From positions 480,001 to 512,000 of the forward strand of contig NZ_CP089976.1 in the NCBI RefSeq assembly GCF_022701215.1: 32,000 nucleotides of DNA, read 5' to 3'. The position numbers and the translations under genes are program-made. Below, piece after piece: positions 192-13,384 of this stretch (its first letter is position 1; each line of letters starts with the position of its first letter). The notes beneath the pieces were generated by a model. The model did not search any database, was not told the DNA's origin, and saw only the letters and a program-made list of their open reading frames with translations. This DNA is from Moraxella nasovis. Its GTDB lineage: Bacteria > Pseudomonadota > Gammaproteobacteria > Pseudomonadales > Moraxellaceae.

Positions 192-854
192 TTACACCCC
201 ATACTGCTTGCGATACGCCATCATTTTGGTCAAATACTCATCACCATCTTGATTGCCCAAAAAATCAATAATATCATCAATATCAATCAAGCTATGCACG
301 CTCACACCAAAATCATCTTTGATTTGACAGACGGCACTGCGGTCATCTTGCCCTTTTTCTTTGCGGTCAAGTGCAATCACTATCCCTGCCAAGCTTGCCC
401 CAGCACCTTGCAAAATCTCCACCACTTCACGCACGGCGGTCCCTGCTGTCATCACATCATCAATCACCCATACCGACTTACCTGACAAATCCGCCCCCAC
501 AAGACTGCCACCTTCGCCATGCGTTTTGGCTTCTTTGCGGTTATAACCCCACGCCACATCAATGCCATGAGCCTGCCACAAGGTCTGGGCGGTGGTTGCC
601 ACAAAAGGAATGCCTTTATACGCCGCTCCAAAAATGGTCGGATTATCCTTATCTTTCAATTGACTGGCAAGCACATCAGCATAACCACAAGACAGCATAT
701 CCAAGGCTTGTCCGCTCGCCAATAGCCCTGCATTAAAAAAGTAGGGGCTGACTCGTCCAGATTTTAGGGTAAACTCACCAAATTTTAGGACACCACAATC
801 AAGCAGTAGTTGAATAAAGGCTTGTTTATCAAATGCGTGTGTTTGTATATTCAT
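192..854 (-). CDS. pyrE: orotate phosphoribosyltransferase
   Basis: 220-aa ORF. It has the PyrE N-terminus (FGEFTLKSGRVSPYFFNAG) and the PRPP-binding loop VWVIDDVMTAGTA. Confidence 0.93.
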   Translation of the reverse strand: MNIQTHAFDKQAFIQLLLDCGVLKFGEFTLKSGRVSPYFFNAGLLASGQALDMLSCGYADVLASQLKDKDNPTIFGAAYKGIPFVATTAQTLWQAHGIDVAWGYNRKEAKTHGEGGSLVGADLSGKSVWVIDDVMTAGTAVREVVEILQGAGASLAGIVIALDRKEKGQDDRSAVCQIKDDFGVSVHSLIDIDDIIDFLGNQDGDEYLTKMMAYRKQYGV

Positions 855-884
855 GTATTACTCCAAAAAAATATAGTGTTTATT

Positions 885-1622
885 TTACACGGTTCTGGGG
901 TAAATTTCTTGGGAATTTACTGCAGTAAATTTTTGCTCAATCAAACTGTGGCTATCCACCAAAAACCGTCCCCACTCATCATCTTGGCACACTTGCACAT
1001 AAGACCCTGTTTCCAACGCCTTTGGCACATCAAGCCCACCTAAAAGACTATCATCACCATGATGATTAAGTTTTGGTAAATCGCCCAAATACCCTGCCAC
1101 ATCATCAAGCGTTAAAAACTTACCATGCAAATCAAACCCTACATTTAAAATCCGCCCAGCCACATCTGCCATGCGGTCATGAATATGCCCATGCAAATGA
1201 TAATAACCCTTATGACAGCCATCCCACTCATTAATCGGATAATGAAACAAAATCAATGTCTTATCAGCGATTTTTAGTTTTAAATACGCTTGGGCGGACG
1301 AAAGCATTGGGTGTCCGTCTAACTTTTTGGCGGTCAACAATTTATCCAAATGCGTGGCAATCACGTCATCATGATTACCAAAAATCAAATGATGTTGCCC
1401 ATTTAGTCGCTCAAGTACTGTTTTAATACGACACAAGTCATAAGAAAAACTCAAATCACCCAAATTATAGACCACATCATTAACACCCACCGTGTCATTC
1501 CATAGCTCAATCATATACTCATCAAGCACATCAATCGTGCCTTGTGGGCGAGTATGTGGGCAAAATTTAGCAATATTTTTATGCGAAAAATGTAAATCAG
1601 AAGTGAAAAATATTTTGCTCAT
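885..1622 (-). CDS. calcineurin-type binuclear metallophosphoesterase; candidate RNA 3'-end healing phosphoesterase
   Basis: 245-aa ORF with the full metallophosphoesterase motif set: SDLHFSH (DxH), LGDLSF (GD), GNHDD (GNH[DE]) and HLHGHIH (GHxH). Its ATG (1622-1620) lies 2 nt after the stop of the upstream kinase-ligase gene (TAA at 1627-1625), so the two are probably translationally coupled. Confidence 0.85.
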   Translation of the reverse strand: MSKIFFTSDLHFSHKNIAKFCPHTRPQGTIDVLDEYMIELWNDTVGVNDVVYNLGDLSFSYDLCRIKTVLERLNGQHHLIFGNHDDVIATHLDKLLTAKKLDGHPMLSSAQAYLKLKIADKTLILFHYPINEWDGCHKGYYHLHGHIHDRMADVAGRILNVGFDLHGKFLTLDDVAGYLGDLPKLNHHGDDSLLGGLDVPKALETGSYVQVCQDDEWGRFLVDSHSLIEQKFTAVNSQEIYPRTV

Positions 1623-1624
1623 TT

Positions 1625-3154
1625 TTAATCCAACTTTTCCAAAAACCCTTGAATAAACGCAATTTTATCCAACTCATTCATTTGGTTAAACATCTGTTTG
1701 TTTGCCTTAATATAATCCACAAGCGGATAATATTCTTCATCAAATTCTTGTTTATTTAATTGGGTGGTGTTTAATTTATGGCTTAAATTTTTATCGGTAC
1801 TTCTACCCAAAAACTTTGAAATCAAATAATACGGCGATTTTAATTTAAACAATAATCGCCAATGCTCATCAAACACCATAAACCCTTCGTGCTTGACCAT
1901 TTTTAATAACGCCTTTAATTCACCAAAAGGAATTTTTTCAATGGCTTGTGGACGTTTTAAGCCAAATTTTTTGCCAATTTCGTCCAATGTTTTTTCATCA
2001 AATTGTACACCTGTCGCCACATCCACCACGCCAATCAAGGTTTCACCAAAATCTTCATTGATGATATGCACATCAGCCGGATCAGTAATTTCAAACAAAA
2101 AAGTATGGTTGGGGAAAGCCTTAAATACAGACTCATATTGCTGGCAGTGGCTTTGAGTCATTTTGGCAAAATCGCTATCAAGCGAGCCTGTGGTAGAATA
2201 CAGCACTTGGCGATTAAAACTCGCTCCAAAACTTGGGTGTGTGTTATCCAAATCCACAAACGTACACACGCCCAAAAAACCATTAACCTTAACCACCGCA
2301 TTAACAATCGTATCATCGCTTATGGTAATCGGATAACGGCTGTTTTGAGTAATGCGTTCAGAATAATTAAACACTTTTTTAAATGGACGGACAATAATAC
2401 GGTTATGGCTATCCACGATAAGCCCGCGCATTTCAAGCAAAGCATCATCAAAACTATTTTCATAAAACACCTTGCGGGCATATTTAAGCACCGACAGCTC
2501 AGGATAACGCTTACTTGTCTTTTTGCTAAAGTTTTTACGAGCAAAAGTTAAATATTCATCGGTAACAAAGGTGTTTTGTACTTCATCAAAAGGTAATTTC
2601 CCTTGACTAAAGGTATTCATTTTATCAACCAAAGCTTGCGTTGCTGCATCAATAGGCTTAATCGCAGGAACGTGAATTTCTTCTTTTAAACGGTTGTTGT
2701 TTAAGTTGATATAAGCAGTCAAAACATCTGCTTGTTTAACGTTGTGTGTGTTGTTAAAAAAGTTGTGCAAGCGATACACTTGTACCTCAAAATCAAACTT
2801 TTTTGCCATTTGCATAAGATGAGTACAAGCTGCAACCTTTTGGTTGGTGTTAGAATTAACGATTAAAATGTGCTGACTTGGATTTTGTCGCCCTTGCTTT
2901 AAGGCGTTTTTGAAAGTCGCTAAGTTTTGACGTTGTGCTTTATCCACCGCTTGCACAGACCAGCGATACACGCCTTTTTCATCGGTCAATAACAAGTCAT
3001 TTTCCAAATGAATAATTAGAGCATTGGGATAAGTTTTTAAAAATTCGTCAATTTTTTGCTTTGCAAAAGTAGATTTACCTGAGCCTTGATGCCCACGGAT
3101 TAGGATAAATTGTTGCATAATAAAACCCTTATTCATCGTTACTGTTTTAAACAA
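1625..3154 (-). CDS. fusion protein: N-terminal P-loop polynucleotide-kinase-like domain plus C-terminal ATP-dependent RNA-ligase-like nucleotidyltransferase domain
   Basis: 509-aa track ORF that opens with TTG at 3154. The ATG at 3118 (MQQFILIRGHQGSGKST), preceded by AAGGG, is the more likely start. Kinase part: P-loop GHQGSGKST, LENDLL and IVNSNTN, laid out like T4 Pnk (GCPGSGKST / NRDD / ISDTN). Ligase part: motif I K289-V-N-G (nt 2290-2279), motif III FLFEITD, motif IV LIGVVD, motif V EGFMVF...LFKLKS. Confidence 0.78.
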   Translation of the reverse strand: MFKTVTMNKGFIMQQFILIRGHQGSGKSTFAKQKIDEFLKTYPNALIIHLENDLLLTDEKGVYRWSVQAVDKAQRQNLATFKNALKQGRQNPSQHILIVNSNTNQKVAACTHLMQMAKKFDFEVQVYRLHNFFNNTHNVKQADVLTAYINLNNNRLKEEIHVPAIKPIDAATQALVDKMNTFSQGKLPFDEVQNTFVTDEYLTFARKNFSKKTSKRYPELSVLKYARKVFYENSFDDALLEMRGLIVDSHNRIIVRPFKKVFNYSERITQNSRYPITISDDTIVNAVVKVNGFLGVCTFVDLDNTHPSFGASFNRQVLYSTTGSLDSDFAKMTQSHCQQYESVFKAFPNHTFLFEITDPADVHIINEDFGETLIGVVDVATGVQFDEKTLDEIGKKFGLKRPQAIEKIPFGELKALLKMVKHEGFMVFDEHWRLLFKLKSPYYLISKFLGRSTDKNLSHKLNTTQLNKQEFDEEYYPLVDYIKANKQMFNQMNELDKIAFIQGFLEKLD

Positions 3155-3490
3155 TGAAAATAACCGTTAAAACAATGTAAAATTTATCATGACAATCAAT
3201 ATCAAAGTAAGACGAACTGTCATTCGCCCAGTCACTTAGAAAATGAACTCACATAAAAATCTTACACATAAAACCAACAATTTTATAAAAATTGCGATGC
3301 GGCAGGGTCGTAGCTTGGGGATTATATAATTTTCACTCTTTTAAAATTATATAAATGTGAAATTTATCAAAAAAAATGGATAAATTTTTGTCAATGACTT
3401 ATTGTAATGCTAAATTTGAGTTTGTCAAGTAATTTTGTGGTCAAAAGTTTTGATTGTAACGCCTAAATAAAGGCGGTCAGAATTTATCAT

Positions 3491-3527
3491 AATAAAAAAG
3501 CCCAATCATTACAATCGGGCTTTTTGT
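3491..3527 (-). terminator. rho-independent terminator downstream of tsf
   Basis: The minus-strand RNA AGCCCGAU-UGUAAUG-AUUGGGCU forms an 8-bp stem with one G-U pair, followed by UUUUUAUU. It starts 14 nt after the tsf stop. Confidence 0.65.
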
Positions 3528-3540
3528 TTAAGCAATTGGC

Positions 3541-4419
3541 TTATTTGTTAGCAGCAGCTTGAGCGGCAGCTACTTCAGCAGCAAAGTCTTCTTGCTTTTT
3601 CTCAATGCCTTCACCCACTTCTAAGCGTTTAAAGCTAAGAACAGTAGCGCCGTCAGCTTTTAGAACATCGCCGACTTTTTTATCATTGTCCATAACATAA
3701 GGTTGGTTCACAAGCGTTACTTCGTTTAGGTATTTTTGGATACCACCAGTAATCATTTTCTCAACCACGTTTTCAGGCTTGCCAGATTCTTTGGCTTTGG
3801 CTTCAATGATGTCTTTTTCACGAGCCAAGATATCAGCAGGTACACTTTCTTCATTTACCGCTAGTGGGTTAAATGCAGCTACTTGCATTGCAACAGCTTT
3901 ACCAAGCTCTTCGCTACCGCCTTCATAAGACACTACCACACCGATACGAATGCCGTGACGATAAGCAGCAAGATTTGCCCCTTCAATCACTTCGGCACGA
4001 CGAATCTGGATATTTTCGCCAATTTTTTGAACCAAAGCCACACGAGCTTCTTCAACATTAGAACCATCGCCATATGGCAATTCAGCAATCTTAGCTACAT
4101 CAGTTGTGTCATTCGCTAATGCTAATTGAGCAACTTGGTTAGCAAATGCGGTGAAGTTTTCATCTTTTGCTACAAAGTCTGTTTGGCAGTTAACTTCTAA
4201 TAGTAATGCTTTATTGCCTTCTTGAGCAATAATAATTGCACCATCAGCTGCAATATTACCTGCTTTTTTAGCAGCTTTTGCTTGACCTGATTTACGTAAG
4301 TTATCAATGGCAAGCTCAATATCGCCATTTGCTTCTTCTAGTGCTTTTTTGCATTCCATCATACCAAGACCAGTACGATCACGCAATTCTTTTACAAGTT
4401 TTGCAGATACTTGACTCAT
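3541..4419 (-). CDS. tsf: translation elongation factor Ts
   Basis: 292-aa ORF with the EF-Ts N-terminus [38 protein letters not shown]. It lies directly downstream of rpsB, the conserved rpsB-tsf order. Confidence 0.97.
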
Positions 4420-5549: not shown

Positions 5550-6008
5550 TTAGTTATCTTTATGTTGACACCCTTTAGTTAAGTATTTTTGCTCAATATT
5601 AGAAGTACACGACCAAGCTCCATCGATCTTAGCCCATGTAACATGCTTTGACTTTAACTGAGTAGCGGCATCACCGCCTAATACAGCCTTAATCGTTGGT
5701 GAATTGCCTAGAGTAACAACCAATCCTTTTTGACCTGTATTAGCAGTTGTTTCGGCTGCATTTTGAGTTTCATCAGTATCCAATAAATTACTTTTTGTCC
5801 AGCCTAGCTCACATGTTGTTTCATCATCACCTTGCATTTGACAAATATCAACAGTACTACGCAATTGGCTTGTTTCCATAACAACTCTATTAACTTGAGC
5901 AGCTATCGTCCGATCCTGAAATTTAGGAATAGCAAACATCGCCAAAATGCCGATAATCACTACAACAATCATCAATTCAATTAGAGTAAATCCTTTTTGA
6001 TAACCCAT
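5550..6008 (-). CDS. type IV pilin (prepilin with short class-a leader)
   Basis: 152-aa ORF. It has the leader MGYQKG followed by FTLIELMIVVVIIGILA (Gly-1 / Phe+1 / Glu+5 prepilin peptidase site). There are two Cys pairs, including a C-terminal loop C...12 aa...C. Confidence 0.85.
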   Translation of the reverse strand: MGYQKGFTLIELMIVVVIIGILAMFAIPKFQDRTIAAQVNRVVMETSQLRSTVDICQMQGDDETTCELGWTKSNLLDTDETQNAAETTANTGQKGLVVTLGNSPTIKAVLGGDAATQLKSKHVTWAKIDGAWSCTSNIEQKYLTKGCQHKDN

Positions 6009-6151: not shown

Positions 6152-6268
6152 GGTGCTGACGATGACCTACTCTCACATGGGCGAACCACACTACCATCGG
6201 CGCTAAGACGTTTCACTTCTGAGTTCGGGAAGGGATCAGGTGGTTCCATCTTGCTATTGTCGTCAGCG
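6152..6268 (-). rRNA. rrf: 5S ribosomal RNA
   Basis: The reverse complement aligns along its length with E. coli 5S (CCGAACUCAGAAGUGAAACG...GCGCCGAUGGUAGUGUGG...GAGAGUAGG). The terminal helix pairs 6154-6161 with 6261-6268. Confidence 0.9.
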
Positions 6269-6426
6269 TAAAAGGATTAACAACGATTATGAGTCTGTTT
6301 TTATTTAAATTTAATTTATTAAATTGATTTAATCTTTATTAAATTTACTTCAAGATATATTCTTTATCAAGCTTGTTAGGTAAAATCTTTACACTTTAAT
6401 CATACAAAACCACTTGGGTGTTGTAT

Positions 6427-9290
<2,864 letters not shown>

Positions 9291-9556
9291 ATACAACCCC
9301 AAGTAGTTTTACTTACTTGTGATGTATGAGAATGATTGTAACGATTTACCTATGTTTACGCTTGATTCAGTTCTCTTTACTTTTAGGTGATTATATTGGG
9401 TATAATCACCATGGTTAATTATTTGTTGGAATAAATAATTAACCCAGACTCATAATATGTTGTTAAATAATGATATAAACTTCGTCAGTTTATAAAGTTA
9501 AAGCATAAATAAGAAATCTTATTTAAATTGCTTATGTATGCTTATTGATGTTTTAA

Positions 9557-9632
9557 TGGTGGAGTTAAGGAGAGTCGAACTCCTGACCTCCTGCGTGCAA
9601 GGCAGGCGCTCTACCAACTGAGCTATAACCCC
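9557..9632 (-). tRNA. tRNA-Ala (anticodon TGC), in the rrn spacer
   Basis: The reverse complement is GGGGTTATAGCTCAGTTGGTAGAGCGCCTGCCTTGCACGCAGGAGGTCAGGAGTTCGACTCTCCTTAACTCCACCA. It folds as a cloverleaf, has the G3:U70 identity pair and an encoded CCA. Confidence 0.95.
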
Positions 9633-9641
9633 ATGTGTTAA

Positions 9642-9718
9642 TGGTGGGTCTAATAAGACTTGAACTTATGACCCCCGCGTTATCAACACGGTGCTCTAAC
9701 CAACTGAGCTATAGACCC
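9642..9718 (-). tRNA. tRNA-Ile (anticodon GAT), in the rrn spacer
   Basis: The reverse complement is GGGTCTATAGCTCAGTTGGTTAGAGCACCGTGTTGATAACGCGGGGGTCATAAGTTCAAGTCTTATTAGACCCACCA. Confidence 0.95.
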
Positions 9719-9780: not shown

Positions 9781-11312
<1,532 letters not shown>

Positions 11313-11836: not shown

Positions 11837-12142
11837 GGGGTTTTTTGAAGAAAGTTAGGAAAAGTTTGTAAGTGATTGTTTTTGTGGGGATTTTTTTTGA
11901 TATTTTTGTTGTATCTTTTATGCCATTCATGTATTATTTCGTGTATTATTGATTTGGTTGCGATTTGATTGTTATACCTGATCAGAAATTTATCCATTTA
12001 ATTATTCAATTTAATAGCCATTTGAGCGGTGCAAATACCGCCATCATCAATACCATCATCGCCAAAGAAGGAATTGTCCAATGTAATTATCGTCATCAAA
12101 CTAATCAAGCTAATTTTTATTTTAGTTGAACAAGGATTATGT

Positions 12143-13384
12143 ATGAGACGATTTATATTGGGTAATCGTGCTTTTTTGACGAGCCTATTTTTTGTTGTGA
12201 TGATGCAACTGTTGGTTGCTTTTTCTACTTATTGTATCAGCAAACTTGCCCAAAGCGTGGCTCATGGCAGCCTAAACGTGGGCTACTTATTTGGATTTGT
12301 CGGCAGTTTGGTGGGGGTATTTATCCCTGCTTATCTTGGTAGTATTTATTTTGAGCGGGCAACTTTTGACGCTCTACTACGCTACCATGATGATTTTGAA
12401 CGACATTTTCTAGGCAAAGCCTGCCACTATCATGATGGCAACCTTACACAAAATGCCAAAGCCCTATTATCCCAAGAAGCCAAGCTGACCCTTGATGATA
12501 CGCTACTGACCATTTATGATTTGACATCACTTATCTTTAATGTCGGTTTCAATCTATTTGTGATTGCGTGGGTGATTGATGGGCGAATTTTGTGGGGTTA
12601 TGCGGTGGGCTTTGTTTTGGCGTTGGGGGTGGTTTGGCTCTTTAAAAACCGCCTAAGCACAAGTGCCACTGTCGCCCAAAACACTCGCCTGTCGGTGCTG
12701 TCCGCCCTATCCTATGCGTGGGATAATATCATCATATTCAACACCTACAATCACACTCGCCACCGCCACAAAGTCAATGACAGCCTAGCTGCCGCCAAAC
12801 GTGCGGTCGTGCGTGCCAAGCTGATTCATCATGTCAGTGCCAATCTTGGTATGCTATCTTTGATGTCGTCTGCACTGGGCGTTACGGCGTGGCTGTTTTG
12901 GCAACACCACCACAATATCGCCATGCTTGCTGTATTGGTCGCCACCTTGCCACGTCAAATTCAAATGCTACAAATGTGCGAAGCCATCATCGCTTATCAG
13001 GCTAATCTGATGGCACTATCGGCAAGGGTTGATGGGCTGTTGGGTATTTTTAAGACACCCAAAATCTCGCTTGCTAATTTCATACAAAGCGATAAAATTT
13101 TGGTCAAGCAGACAGGGCGAGTATTTGATTTGACAAAACTTTTGGACAATCCGCCACGCACAGGGCGTATTACGCTCGTTGGCGATAATGGCGTGGGCAA
13201 GTCCTGTGTGCTTTTGACCATCAAAGAGCGGTTGTATGCCAAGTCCTATTACCTGCCTGCCAAGCACGAGCTGTGTTTTGATAATAATTTTGGCTCAACA
13301 GGGCAACGACTCATGAGTGAGATTGACGAGCTGACACATGATGATACGCCATACTTTTGCTTGATGAATGGGACGCTAATCTAG
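12143..13384 (+). CDS. ABC exporter-like membrane protein with a miniature, possibly frameshifted ATPase domain
   Basis: The likely start is the ATG at 12143 (MRRFILGN), preceded by AGGA. The track ORF starts at a GTG at 12029. About six hydrophobic helices are followed by Walker A (GDNGVGKS) and a signature-like GSTGQR. The Walker B motif (ILLLDEWDANLD) is only readable in the -1 frame from 13351, and that frame ends at 13437. Confidence 0.6.
   Translation: MRRFILGNRAFLTSLFFVVMMQLLVAFSTYCISKLAQSVAHGSLNVGYLFGFVGSLVGVFIPAYLGSIYFERATFDALLRYHDDFERHFLGKACHYHDGNLTQNAKALLSQEAKLTLDDTLLTIYDLTSLIFNVGFNLFVIAWVIDGRILWGYAVGFVLALGVVWLFKNRLSTSATVAQNTRLSVLSALSYAWDNIIIFNTYNHTRHRHKVNDSLAAAKRAVVRAKLIHHVSANLGMLSLMSSALGVTAWLFWQHHHNIAMLAVLVATLPRQIQMLQMCEAIIAYQANLMALSARVDGLLGIFKTPKISLANFIQSDKILVKQTGRVFDLTKLLDNPPRTGRITLVGDNGVGKSCVLLTIKERLYAKSYYLPAKHELCFDNNFGSTGQRLMSEIDELTHDDTPYFCLMNGTLI

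Follow-up and report, generated by a model that had tools for sequence, protein, structure and literature searches.

The window considered here is a stretch of 32,000 nucleotides (nt) of Moraxella nasovis (assembly GCF_022701215.1, contig NZ_CP089976.1, positions 480,001-512,000 of the forward strand), and all positions given below refer to it. On its minus strand, rpsB and tsf are followed by a cassette of two genes and then by pyrE (PF00156). The cassette is made up of two open reading frames (ORFs), both on the minus strand, at 1625..3154 (509 amino acids (aa), with a TTG start) and 885..1622 (245 aa). The first appears to encode a Pnk-like kinase domain fused to an RNA ligase domain, referred to below as the kinase-ligase, and the second a stand-alone metallophosphoesterase. 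Both proteins, as well as the neighbouring EF-Ts, are each 100% identical to NCBI Moraxella nasovis proteins. The features of the cassette are the following:

1625..3118, minus strand: coding sequence of the kinase-ligase, 497 aa from the ATG at 3118, its most likely start (the ORF that reaches the TTG at 3154 has 509 aa)
2594..3118, minus strand: Pnk-like P-loop domain, residues 1 to ~175 (PHROG, Foldseek, family profile)
3068-3097, minus strand: P-loop RGHQGSGKST (translated motif)
2990-3004, minus strand: ENDLL, which holds D41 (translated motif)
1628..2548, minus strand: T4 Rnl1-family ligase domain, residues 191-497 (Pfam, PHROG, Foldseek, profile)
2279-2290, minus strand: ligase motif I, KVNG, with K277 (translated motif)
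2084-2101, minus strand: ligase motif III, FLFEIT, with E343 (translated motif)
1835-1891, minus strand: ligase motifs IV and V, HEGFMVF...FKLKS, with E411, G412, K425 and K427 (translated motifs)
1623..1624, minus strand: intergenic spacer of 2 nt between the ligase stop and the phosphoesterase ATG (junction TAA-aa-ATG)
885..1622, minus strand: stand-alone metallophosphoesterase, 245 aa (PHROG, PDB sequence and fold matches, conservation)
1587-1601, minus strand: D9-x-H11 (SDLHF; translated motif)
1455-1463, minus strand: G55-D56 (LGD; translated motif)
1368-1379, minus strand: GNHD, G82-N83-H84-D85 (translated motif)
1179-1190, minus strand: GHIH (translated motif), H127 also being present

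A preliminary description of this locus, made from the sequence only, had given the kinase-ligase a length of 509 aa. An ORF of that length with a TTG start does exist, but the ATG at 3118 is most likely the true start of the gene, since the length annotated by NCBI is 497 aa and all 22 aligned homologues begin there, that is, at M13 of the 509-aa ORF. Residues of the kinase-ligase are numbered here in the 497-aa form, to which 12 must be added to recover the earlier numbering (K277 being the former K289). The motifs quoted in that description all translate at the places given for them in both proteins, and the 2-nt gap that it reported between the genes is indeed there, a spacing consistent with translational coupling and an operon. 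The NCBI name of the M. nasovis kinase-ligase, "2'-5' RNA ligase", looks wrong, as this name belongs to the unrelated 2H LigT/ThpR family.

By sequence and predicted fold, the C-terminal domain is a T4 Rnl1-family RNA ligase. Pfam PF09511 (RNA_lig_T4_1) matches residues 241-443 of the 509-aa ORF with 37.9 bits against a cutoff of 28.3, PHROG 562, which contains T4 Rnl1, matches at 4.1e-43, and a profile of the family together with related 300-aa phage ligases matches the T4 Rnl1 sequence with an E value of 5.8e-12. For the AlphaFold model of the kinase-ligase, built on 23 homologues (mean predicted local distance difference test score (pLDDT) of 89.9), the top PDB matches in Foldseek are T4 Rnl1 structures (9do4, 5tt6 and 2c5u; E ~1e-11), followed by the fungal Trl1 ligase and archaeal Rnl3, and both profile and fold thus bear out the nucleotidyltransferase that had been proposed from motifs. 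Conservation was assessed over 23 full-length homologues, whose identity to the window protein is 33-76% (mean column identity 39%) and in which K277, N279, G280, E343, E411, G412, K425 and K427 are invariant, the lysine put forward earlier as that of motif I among them. In the profile alignment, K277, E343, E411-G412 and K425/K427 pair with K99, E159, E227-G228 and K240/K242 of T4 Rnl1. The same alignment displaces LIGVVD, formerly read as motif IV, and gives EGFMVF (with its E-G) as motif IV and K-L-K as motif V. Moreover, R54, K75, F77 and Y246, which mutagenesis has found to be essential in T4 Rnl1, pair with R, K, F/N and Y residues that are invariant in the family (within ECRG, PF-K-x-F-N and SPYY). 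After motif V, the model contains ~70 residues of helices, while the T4 alignment ends at T4 residue 249, and the template modelling score (TM) normalised to T4 Rnl1 is 0.50 (Foldseek).

The N-terminal domain is a Pnk-like P-loop domain, with the fold of a P-loop kinase. It matches PHROG 2071 at 2e-15 and PHROG 505 (polynucleotide kinase) at 1e-5, and a precomputed PF13671 match is present in many family members. Against PDB sequences, the family profile finds T4 Pnk as its best match (E 2.8e-4), then CthPnk and Pnkp1, and the Foldseek matches of the domain comprise PSTK, T4 Pnk, CthPnk, mammalian PNKP and the Trl1-type kinase, with PSTK ahead of Pnk. R8, G9, G12, G14, K15, T17, D41 and H125 are invariant in the 23 homologues, GHQGSGKST fits the consensus G-x-x-G-x-G-K-[ST], and neither the P-loop nor the Asp that follows strand 2 shows variation. 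D41 lies directly after strand 2 of the model and would thus correspond, by its position along the fold, to the Pnk general base (T4 D35, Cth D38); the hidden Markov model alignment to T4 Pnk is out of register around D41. Further elements of the domain are S-N-T-N, which aligns with S-D-T-N of T4 Pnk (family profile against 1ly1), and N-x-H125-x-V. The subfamily, including stand-alone phage versions, has a signature of its own that reads R-G-x-x-G-S-G-K-[ST], [ED]-x-D, Y-x-W, S-N and H-x-V.

As for the second protein, all of the calcineurin-type motifs attributed to it earlier (DxH, GD, GNHD and GHxH) are present and conserved across 24 homologues, with D9, H11, H127, G145, H146 and H148 invariant and G55-D56 and G82-N83-H84-D85 at least 90% conserved. 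The Pfam Metallophos families are not reached, PF00149 and PF12850 giving no match to the window protein at E 0.1. It matches PHROG 547 at 5.5e-45 and PDB 1xm7 by sequence, and its model (pLDDT 84) also has the fold of 1xm7 (Aquifex Aq_1665) as its best match, with an E value of 8e-10, followed by E. coli YfcE, Vps29 and Rv0805, and with Mre11/SbcD-type proteins among the weaker matches. Phage proteins labelled as COG4186 phosphoesterase reach a TM of up to 0.87 at 30-37% identity. The CthPnkp phosphatase 4j6o is absent among the 50 fold matches listed, and BLASTP of the phosphoesterase against a Pnkp-like triple fusion is insignificant (E 0.23). By sequence and model, the phosphoesterase is placed in the COG4186/YfcE/Aq_1665 clade and not in the lambda-phosphatase/CthPnkp clade. 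Residues ~190-245 (885-1055) form a C-terminal extension, with ~30-50 residues in the closest Moraxella, Faucicola and metagenomic homologues and absent from most others; in the model, its residues 190-214 are of low confidence and 216-237 form one helix.

The association of these modules is maintained well beyond Moraxella. Scanning metagenome and viral contigs with the ligase-domain alignment contributed to a collection of 96 related bacterial loci (16 from genomes or assemblies and 80 metagenomic), in all of which (96/96) the kinase domain is fused to the ligase. Of the 69 loci whose sequence continues downstream for at least 2.7 kb, 56 have the phosphoesterase on that side, at a distance of 13 to ~2,600 nt. 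When the loci are grouped at 90% ligase identity, and those with shorter flanks are counted too, it is present in 16 of 18 clusters, which cover Moraxellaceae, Neisseriaceae, Cardiobacteriaceae, Pasteurellaceae and Campylobacter, so that the pairing of the two genes noted at the M. nasovis locus recurs across lineages. The exceptions are one Neisseria-like clade (0/11 loci), considered below, and one singleton locus. The minimal two-gene arrangement is also found in other Moraxella-like, Cardiobacteriaceae, Pasteurellaceae and Campylobacter loci. In agreement with the absence of Hen1 already remarked on, no Hen1-type methyltransferase is found in the scanned flanks of the window (some window ORFs beyond 21 kb being unscanned) or in seven annotated homologous loci.

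The relatives of the cassette also provide a regulatory context. Where upstream sequence of at least 5 kb is available (67 loci), a divergent RtcR gene occurs in 52 and a Ro60/Rsr gene directly upstream of the kinase-ligase in 52. The Alysiella crassa locus runs from rtcR through a sigma-54 promoter, two YrlA-like RNAs, a weak match to YrlB and rsr to a 253-aa gene, after which come the kinase-ligase and the phosphoesterase; the sigma-54 -24/-12 element between rtcR and rsr is TGGCACGCACTTTGC. The YrlA-like RNAs score 66.6 bits (E 8e-15) and 45 bits (E 1e-8), the Rfam gathering score being 69; the sigma-54 element and, behind it, this tandem pair with a third weak copy and the weak YrlB-like match lie at 2857-3450 of the locus taken from CP091519.2 (L006), and the RNAs would seem to be Y-RNA genes that the annotation of this Neisseriaceae genome has missed. 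RtcR occurs without Rsr in Kingella negevensis and in several lineages known from metagenomes, and a strict sigma-54 pattern is found between rtcR and the ligase gene in 24 of the 54 RtcR-linked loci. tRNA halves with a terminal 2',3'-cyclic phosphate activate RtcR, whose usual targets are RtcB/RtcA (PMC7790460). Since RtcR and Rsr stand upstream and the annotated homologous loci contain neither RtcB nor RtcA, the kinase-ligase and the phosphoesterase occupy in Neisseriaceae the place of the RtcB/RtcA repair enzymes. This placement behind RtcR, Rsr and Y RNAs gives independent contextual support for a role in RNA repair.

The same context bears on the suggestion that the cassette repairs DNA, acting on nicks or breaks with 5'-OH and 3'-phosphate ends in the manner of mammalian PNKP and its partner ligase. 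DNA ends are often substrates of Pnk-type kinases and of metallophosphoesterases, and mammalian PNKP and Mre11/SbcD-type proteins are among the weaker fold matches. Nevertheless, the ligase falls in the Rnl1 family and not in a DNA ligase family, the partners RtcR, Ro60/Rsr and the Y-RNA-like genes are all RNA-centred, and no DNA repair genes are linked to the cassette in the seven annotated homologous loci, which makes DNA repair a very unlikely function.

All three modules have homologues in phages. Many phages encode ~300-aa ligases that are 37-40% identical to the window ligase domain, and in the two phages described next the phosphoesterase likewise shares 37-40% identity with that of the window. 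In Ralstonia phage RSP15, the kinase ORF098 (29% identity, E 2e-10) extends into the beginning of the ligase ORF097, and the phosphoesterase ORF094 (40% identity, E 6e-32) follows, which is the order of the bacterial modules; Pseudomonas phage M5.1 carries gp33 (kinase), gp31 (ligase) and gp29 (phosphoesterase). In nine further viral contigs, a phosphoesterase homologue lies within ~2 kb of a phage-type ligase (9/9). To our knowledge, the RSP15 and M5.1 proteins are uncharacterised. Judged by homology, the cassette is the fused, chromosomal counterpart of this widespread phage three-gene module. The preliminary description had presented it as a rearranged, Hen1-less heal-and-seal system; a rearrangement of the bacterial Pnkp is rejected here because the modules cluster in phages and the phosphoesterase falls outside the lambda-phosphatase clade.

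The phage comparisons yielded some observations of separate interest. RSP15 ORF097 (2962-3897 of locus L017), an Rnl1-like ligase, is annotated as "metallophosphoesterase", which looks wrong. In the viral contig IMGVR_UViG_3300008521_000114 (41.5 kb; L102 and L103), a bacterial-type kinase-ligase gene is split at S-T-T-G-S by a ~38 kb Mu-like prophage with MuA-/MuB-like transposition proteins, a CI-like repressor and tail-fibre genes, and the phosphoesterase gene is found downstream of the gene's 3' part. Because Mu-like phages show little preference for particular targets when they transpose, a chance insertion is probable, and a targeted integration into the ligase gene was considered and rejected. 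Finally, a separate family of 700-812 aa (P0283, P0328, P0333, P0336 and P0372) combines an AAA_33 kinase, a CthPnkp-like phosphatase that matches 4j6o (E 6e-13) and an Rnl1-like ligase ~40% identical to that of the window, so that the domains stand in a Pnkp-like order but the ligase is of Rnl1 type; PHROG 8238 (737 aa) suggests that some members of this triple-fusion family are phage-encoded.

Taken together, these data point to a phage-type RNA heal-and-seal repair module, a reading to which a probability of roughly 0.78 may be given. According to it, a metal-independent ribonuclease would cut RNA, most likely in a tRNA anticodon loop, and leave a 2',3'-cyclic phosphate at one end and a 5'-OH at the other. 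The COG4186-type phosphoesterase would then open and remove the cyclic phosphate to give a 3'-OH, the N-terminal Pnk-like domain would phosphorylate the 5'-OH, and the Rnl1-type ligase would seal the healed ends, with K277 being adenylylated, AMP passing to the 5'-phosphate and the 3'-OH attacking. The enzymatic activities, the substrate and the physiological trigger are all assigned by homology; tRNA anticodon loops cut by ribotoxins are proposed as the likeliest substrates because of the kinship with Rnl1 and the link with RtcR. According to a related review, some of the RNA repair sets of phages may have a calcineurin-like domain as their phosphatase (PMC7824862).

Several observations weigh against this reading, some of them concerning the N-terminal domain. 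It likely has 5'-OH kinase activity; however, this is the weakest link and the least secure step of the scheme, because the D-x-x-R and lid arginines of Pnk are absent and AAA_33 stays below threshold. Specifically, Pfam AAA_33 scores 22.8 bits on the window protein, under the cutoff of 27. The alignment has no counterpart of the D-x-x-R arginine of T4 Pnk and CthPnk, the residue three positions after D41 being a Leu that is variable, nor of the R-x-x-x-R arginine lid, where the region reads N-F-F-x-N-x-H-N-V without a conserved Arg, and the invariant R8 and H125 have no assigned role. Thus, of the P-loop kinase proposed originally, the relationship stands, with Pnk enzymes as the best solved relatives, whereas the profile score and the catalytic arginines of a canonical Pnk are lacking.

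These same features leave room for a P-loop domain that is not a 5'-OH kinase at all (an NTPase, a regulatory or RNA-loading domain, or another kinase), in which case the ligase and the phosphoesterase would serve a different RNA-end transaction, such as the trimming or clearing of cyclic-phosphate RNA signals, circularisation or processing, instead of full healing and sealing. The missing canonical arginines in a subfamily with its own signature, the AAA_33 score below the Pfam cutoff and the position of PSTK, a tRNA-dependent kinase, ahead of Pnk among the closest folds would all fit such a domain. Nevertheless, it is T4 Pnk that the family profile matches best among PDB sequences, the Asp after strand 2 appears to occupy the place of the Pnk general base, and S-N-T-N aligns with S-D-T-N of T4 Pnk. 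Moreover, a ligase that requires a 5'-phosphate, fused in all of the loci examined to a P-loop phosphotransferase and accompanied by a linked phosphoesterase, follows the standard logic of end healing, and RtcR responds to ends whose partner carries a 5'-OH (PMC7790460). A non-kinase domain is accordingly regarded as improbable, and RNA healing and sealing with a 5'-OH kinase as the preferred interpretation.

Among the remaining difficulties for the heal-and-seal reading, the position of T4 K119 (S-K-G-S) is taken in the ligase by an invariant Thr (S-T-T-G-S), and the helical C-terminal module, on which the tRNA preference of T4 Rnl1 depends, is shorter here and not alignable. The closest solved relative of the phosphoesterase, 1xm7, has no assigned function, and we know of no member of the COG4186/YfcE/Aq_1665 clade shown to act on RNA 2',3'-cyclic ends. 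The Neisseria-like clade devoid of the phosphoesterase (L014-L016, L081, L083, L085, L088, L089 and L094) has RtcR, Rsr and the kinase-ligase, with no COG4186 phosphoesterase within 6 kb. In its stead the loci carry a 266-aa gene, a 111-aa gene and often a DUF6988 gene, and one of these proteins may supply the missing 3'-end healing; the 266-aa protein is 39% identical to the 253-aa protein of Alysiella. Neither Pfam nor PHROG gives an informative match for the accessory genes of the relatives (the 253/266-aa family, 259 aa, 136 aa, 111 aa, DUF6847 and DUF6988), and there is no relationship between the 253-aa protein and the 259-aa one. In addition, no biochemical or genetic characterisation of any family member was found in the searchable literature. 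Lastly, the regulatory argument is borrowed from homologues, because these partners are missing from the surroundings of the M. nasovis copy: neither RtcR nor Rsr is found among the scanned window ORFs (~11 kb beside the cassette and 8 of the larger ORFs beyond, some past 21 kb being unscanned), an Rfam scan of window positions 700-3600 gives no Y RNA, and a pattern search finds no sigma-54 element upstream of the copy.

The position of the cassette in M. nasovis is explained by insertion, as shown by close Moraxella relatives, in which the tsf-pyrE junction is empty: the gap measures 155 nt in M. marmotae and 137 nt in M. bovoculi, without a cassette. Acquisition between these two core genes, suggested in the preliminary description, is therefore supported, and it is accompanied by a lower G+C content of the cassette than of its neighbours. 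The spot counts given there are reproduced (30.0% at 1681-1740 and, in pyrE, 53.3% at 361-420), and over whole genes the ligase gene has 36.4% and the phosphoesterase gene 39.6% G+C, compared with a mean of 44.1% (standard deviation 2.6%) for the 18 other coding sequences of the window; the G+C content at third codon positions of the cassette is not unusual. In Faucicola and M. bovis, the cassettes are located at other genomic sites. In M. nonliquefaciens, a TonB-dependent receptor gene occupies the tsf-pyrE junction (7197-9545 of locus L101, an M. nonliquefaciens-like contig), where M. nasovis has the cassette (window 855-3540), and this junction looks like a recurrent insertion spot in Moraxella. 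No mobile-element or phage genes flank the cassette, and there are no convincing direct or inverted repeats at its sides. The limits of the insert and its putative expression signals are the following:

3490..3530, minus strand: intrinsic tsf terminator, with a G+C-rich hairpin and a T run behind it (sequence, inverted repeat), upstream limit of the insert
3401..3428, minus strand: sigma-70-like promoter TTGACA-16-TACAAT, with 11/12 consensus positions, ~280 nt upstream of the ATG
855..884, minus strand: spacer of 30 nt from the phosphoesterase stop to the pyrE ATG, with GGAG and no terminator, downstream limit of the insert

The M. nasovis pair appears to use the sigma-70-like promoter. Its -10 box, of the TACAAT type, is similar to the one found before pyrE in relatives, and the cassette may have been inserted between pyrE and the promoter of that gene. 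As only 30 nt without a terminator separate the phosphoesterase gene from pyrE, the latter may be transcribed through the cassette.

An inserted element of this kind could also be a decaying remnant of phage or otherwise horizontally acquired DNA that has no current function in M. nasovis, as might be suspected from its G+C content below that of the neighbours, from the phage homologues of its modules and from the lack of RtcR and Rsr partners nearby. Against such decay, both reading frames are intact and every family-invariant residue is present, the minimal two-gene form is conserved in the other Moraxella-like, Cardiobacteriaceae, Pasteurellaceae and Campylobacter loci, and neither phage genes nor mobile-element repeats flank the cassette. 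Loss of function is thus the remotest of the explanations considered, and a working RNA repair module is retained as the likelier reading.

Elsewhere in the window, a type IV pilin gene at 5550-6008 is followed by a complete ribosomal RNA (rRNA) operon, to which a 451-aa ORF with a GTG start (12029-13384) adjoins; this ORF has no Pfam match at E 1e-5. The operon comprises:

6154-6267, minus strand: 5S rRNA
6425-9290, minus strand: 23S rRNA
9560-9718, minus strand: two tRNAs
9781-11312, minus strand: 16S rRNA

RNA heal-and-seal repair is known from three settings, namely T4 (Pnkp and Rnl1), bacterial Pnkp/Hen1 and eukaryotic Trl1. This locus and ~100 related loci would represent a fourth arrangement, in which a Pnk-Rnl1 fusion is combined with a phosphoesterase of a functionally unassigned clade. 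From the position of the pair after the RtcR, Rsr and Y-RNA genes of Neisseriaceae, it seems that bacteria responding to RNA damage can draw on one or the other of two ligation chemistries that are unrelated, and this position offers a tractable route to ask what RtcR/Rsr/Y-RNA systems repair. If the heal-and-seal reading is true, the COG4186 phosphoesterases, of which phages have many, would be given a function. Both proteins are of small size and look soluble, and the hosts are culturable commensals or pathogens (Kingella, Moraxella and Neisseria). The combination of kinase, phosphoesterase and ligase is itself an established idea, so that the surprise to a specialist should be moderate; a Pnk-Rnl1 fusion with a COG4186 phosphoesterase, under RtcR/Rsr/Y-RNA control in relatives, was not found characterised in the searchable literature, an earlier computational listing being possible.

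A more far-reaching proposal can be put forward only tentatively, and its correctness as a whole is doubtful. In it, the RtcR/Ro60/Y-RNA module of Neisseriaceae would drive Pnk-Rnl1 and COG4186 healing and sealing instead of RtcB, the system, to which the stand-alone M. nasovis copy belongs, would have passed horizontally between mucosal Proteobacteria, and it would confer broad immunity to tRNA-cleaving toxins, either interbacterial or deployed in phage defence. The kinase subfamily without the arginines may, in addition, have a catalytic arrangement or a phosphate donor that is out of the ordinary. Membership in a catalogued defence system was considered separately and rejected, PADLOC giving only a weak P-loop match to mad8.

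Among the closest known systems is that of phage T4, where Pnkp and Rnl1 reverse PrrC damage: the cassette shares with it an Rnl1-family ligase, a Pnk-type kinase and the same predicted logic of end healing and sealing, and no solved structures are closer to its two domains than T4 Rnl1 and T4 Pnk, respectively. However, the kinase is fused to the ligase in the cassette and to the phosphatase in T4, and the 3'-end enzyme would be a binuclear metallophosphoesterase, whereas T4 Pnkp has a DxDxT (HAD) phosphatase. In addition, the cassette ligase is ~70 aa shorter than T4 Rnl1, with a Thr at K119 and without an alignable C-terminal tRNA-specificity domain, and the cassette is chromosomal in bacteria.

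The bacterial Pnkp/Hen1 system of Clostridium thermocellum and the Pnkp1-Rnl-Hen1 system of Capnocytophaga have the same three predicted chemistries, and the kinase domains of CthPnk and Pnkp1 can be recognised as relatives of the cassette kinase. Unlike in these systems, the functions are distributed over two genes, the fusion lacks a phosphatase domain and no Hen1 was found. Moreover, whereas the CthPnkp phosphatase belongs to the lambda-phosphatase clade, that of the cassette is assigned to the COG4186/YfcE/Aq_1665 clade, and the CthPnkp ligase is absent among the 50 Foldseek matches listed for the kinase-ligase model, of which T4 Rnl1 is the first. Nor is the cassette one of the 700-800-aa fusions of Pnk, CthPnkp-like phosphatase and Rnl1-like ligase.

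The eukaryotic and viral counterparts, fungal and plant Trl1 and the baculovirus Pnk/ligase, also join a ligase of the Rnl1/Trl1 group to a P-loop kinase; Trl1 LIG and LIG-KIN are strong fold matches, and yeast Trl1 also has a K-x-N-G motif I. Compared with Trl1, the cassette has the reverse domain order, with the kinase preceding the ligase, and contains neither a 2H cyclic phosphodiesterase nor a HAD domain, its phosphoesterase being a separate metalloenzyme. Furthermore, there is no sign in the cassette of a need for a 2'-phosphate, nor does it have a linked Tpt1/KptA.

With the RtcR-regulated rsr-Y RNA-rtcBA operon of Salmonella and the rtcBA operon of E. coli, the homologues of the cassette share RtcR, a sigma-54 promoter, YrlA/YrlB-like RNAs and Rsr upstream, a context that the M. 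nasovis copy lost or never had. The chemistry would be different, since RtcB ligates a 5'-OH directly to ends with a 3'-phosphate or cyclic phosphate, while the cassette is predicted to heal both ends and to seal them afterwards with a 5'-phosphate ligase. Finally, the RSP15 and M5.1 phage clusters contain homologues of all three modules, in the same order in RSP15, and they differ from the bacterial loci in that the modules are three separate genes in the phages, whereas the kinase and the ligase form a single polypeptide in bacteria.

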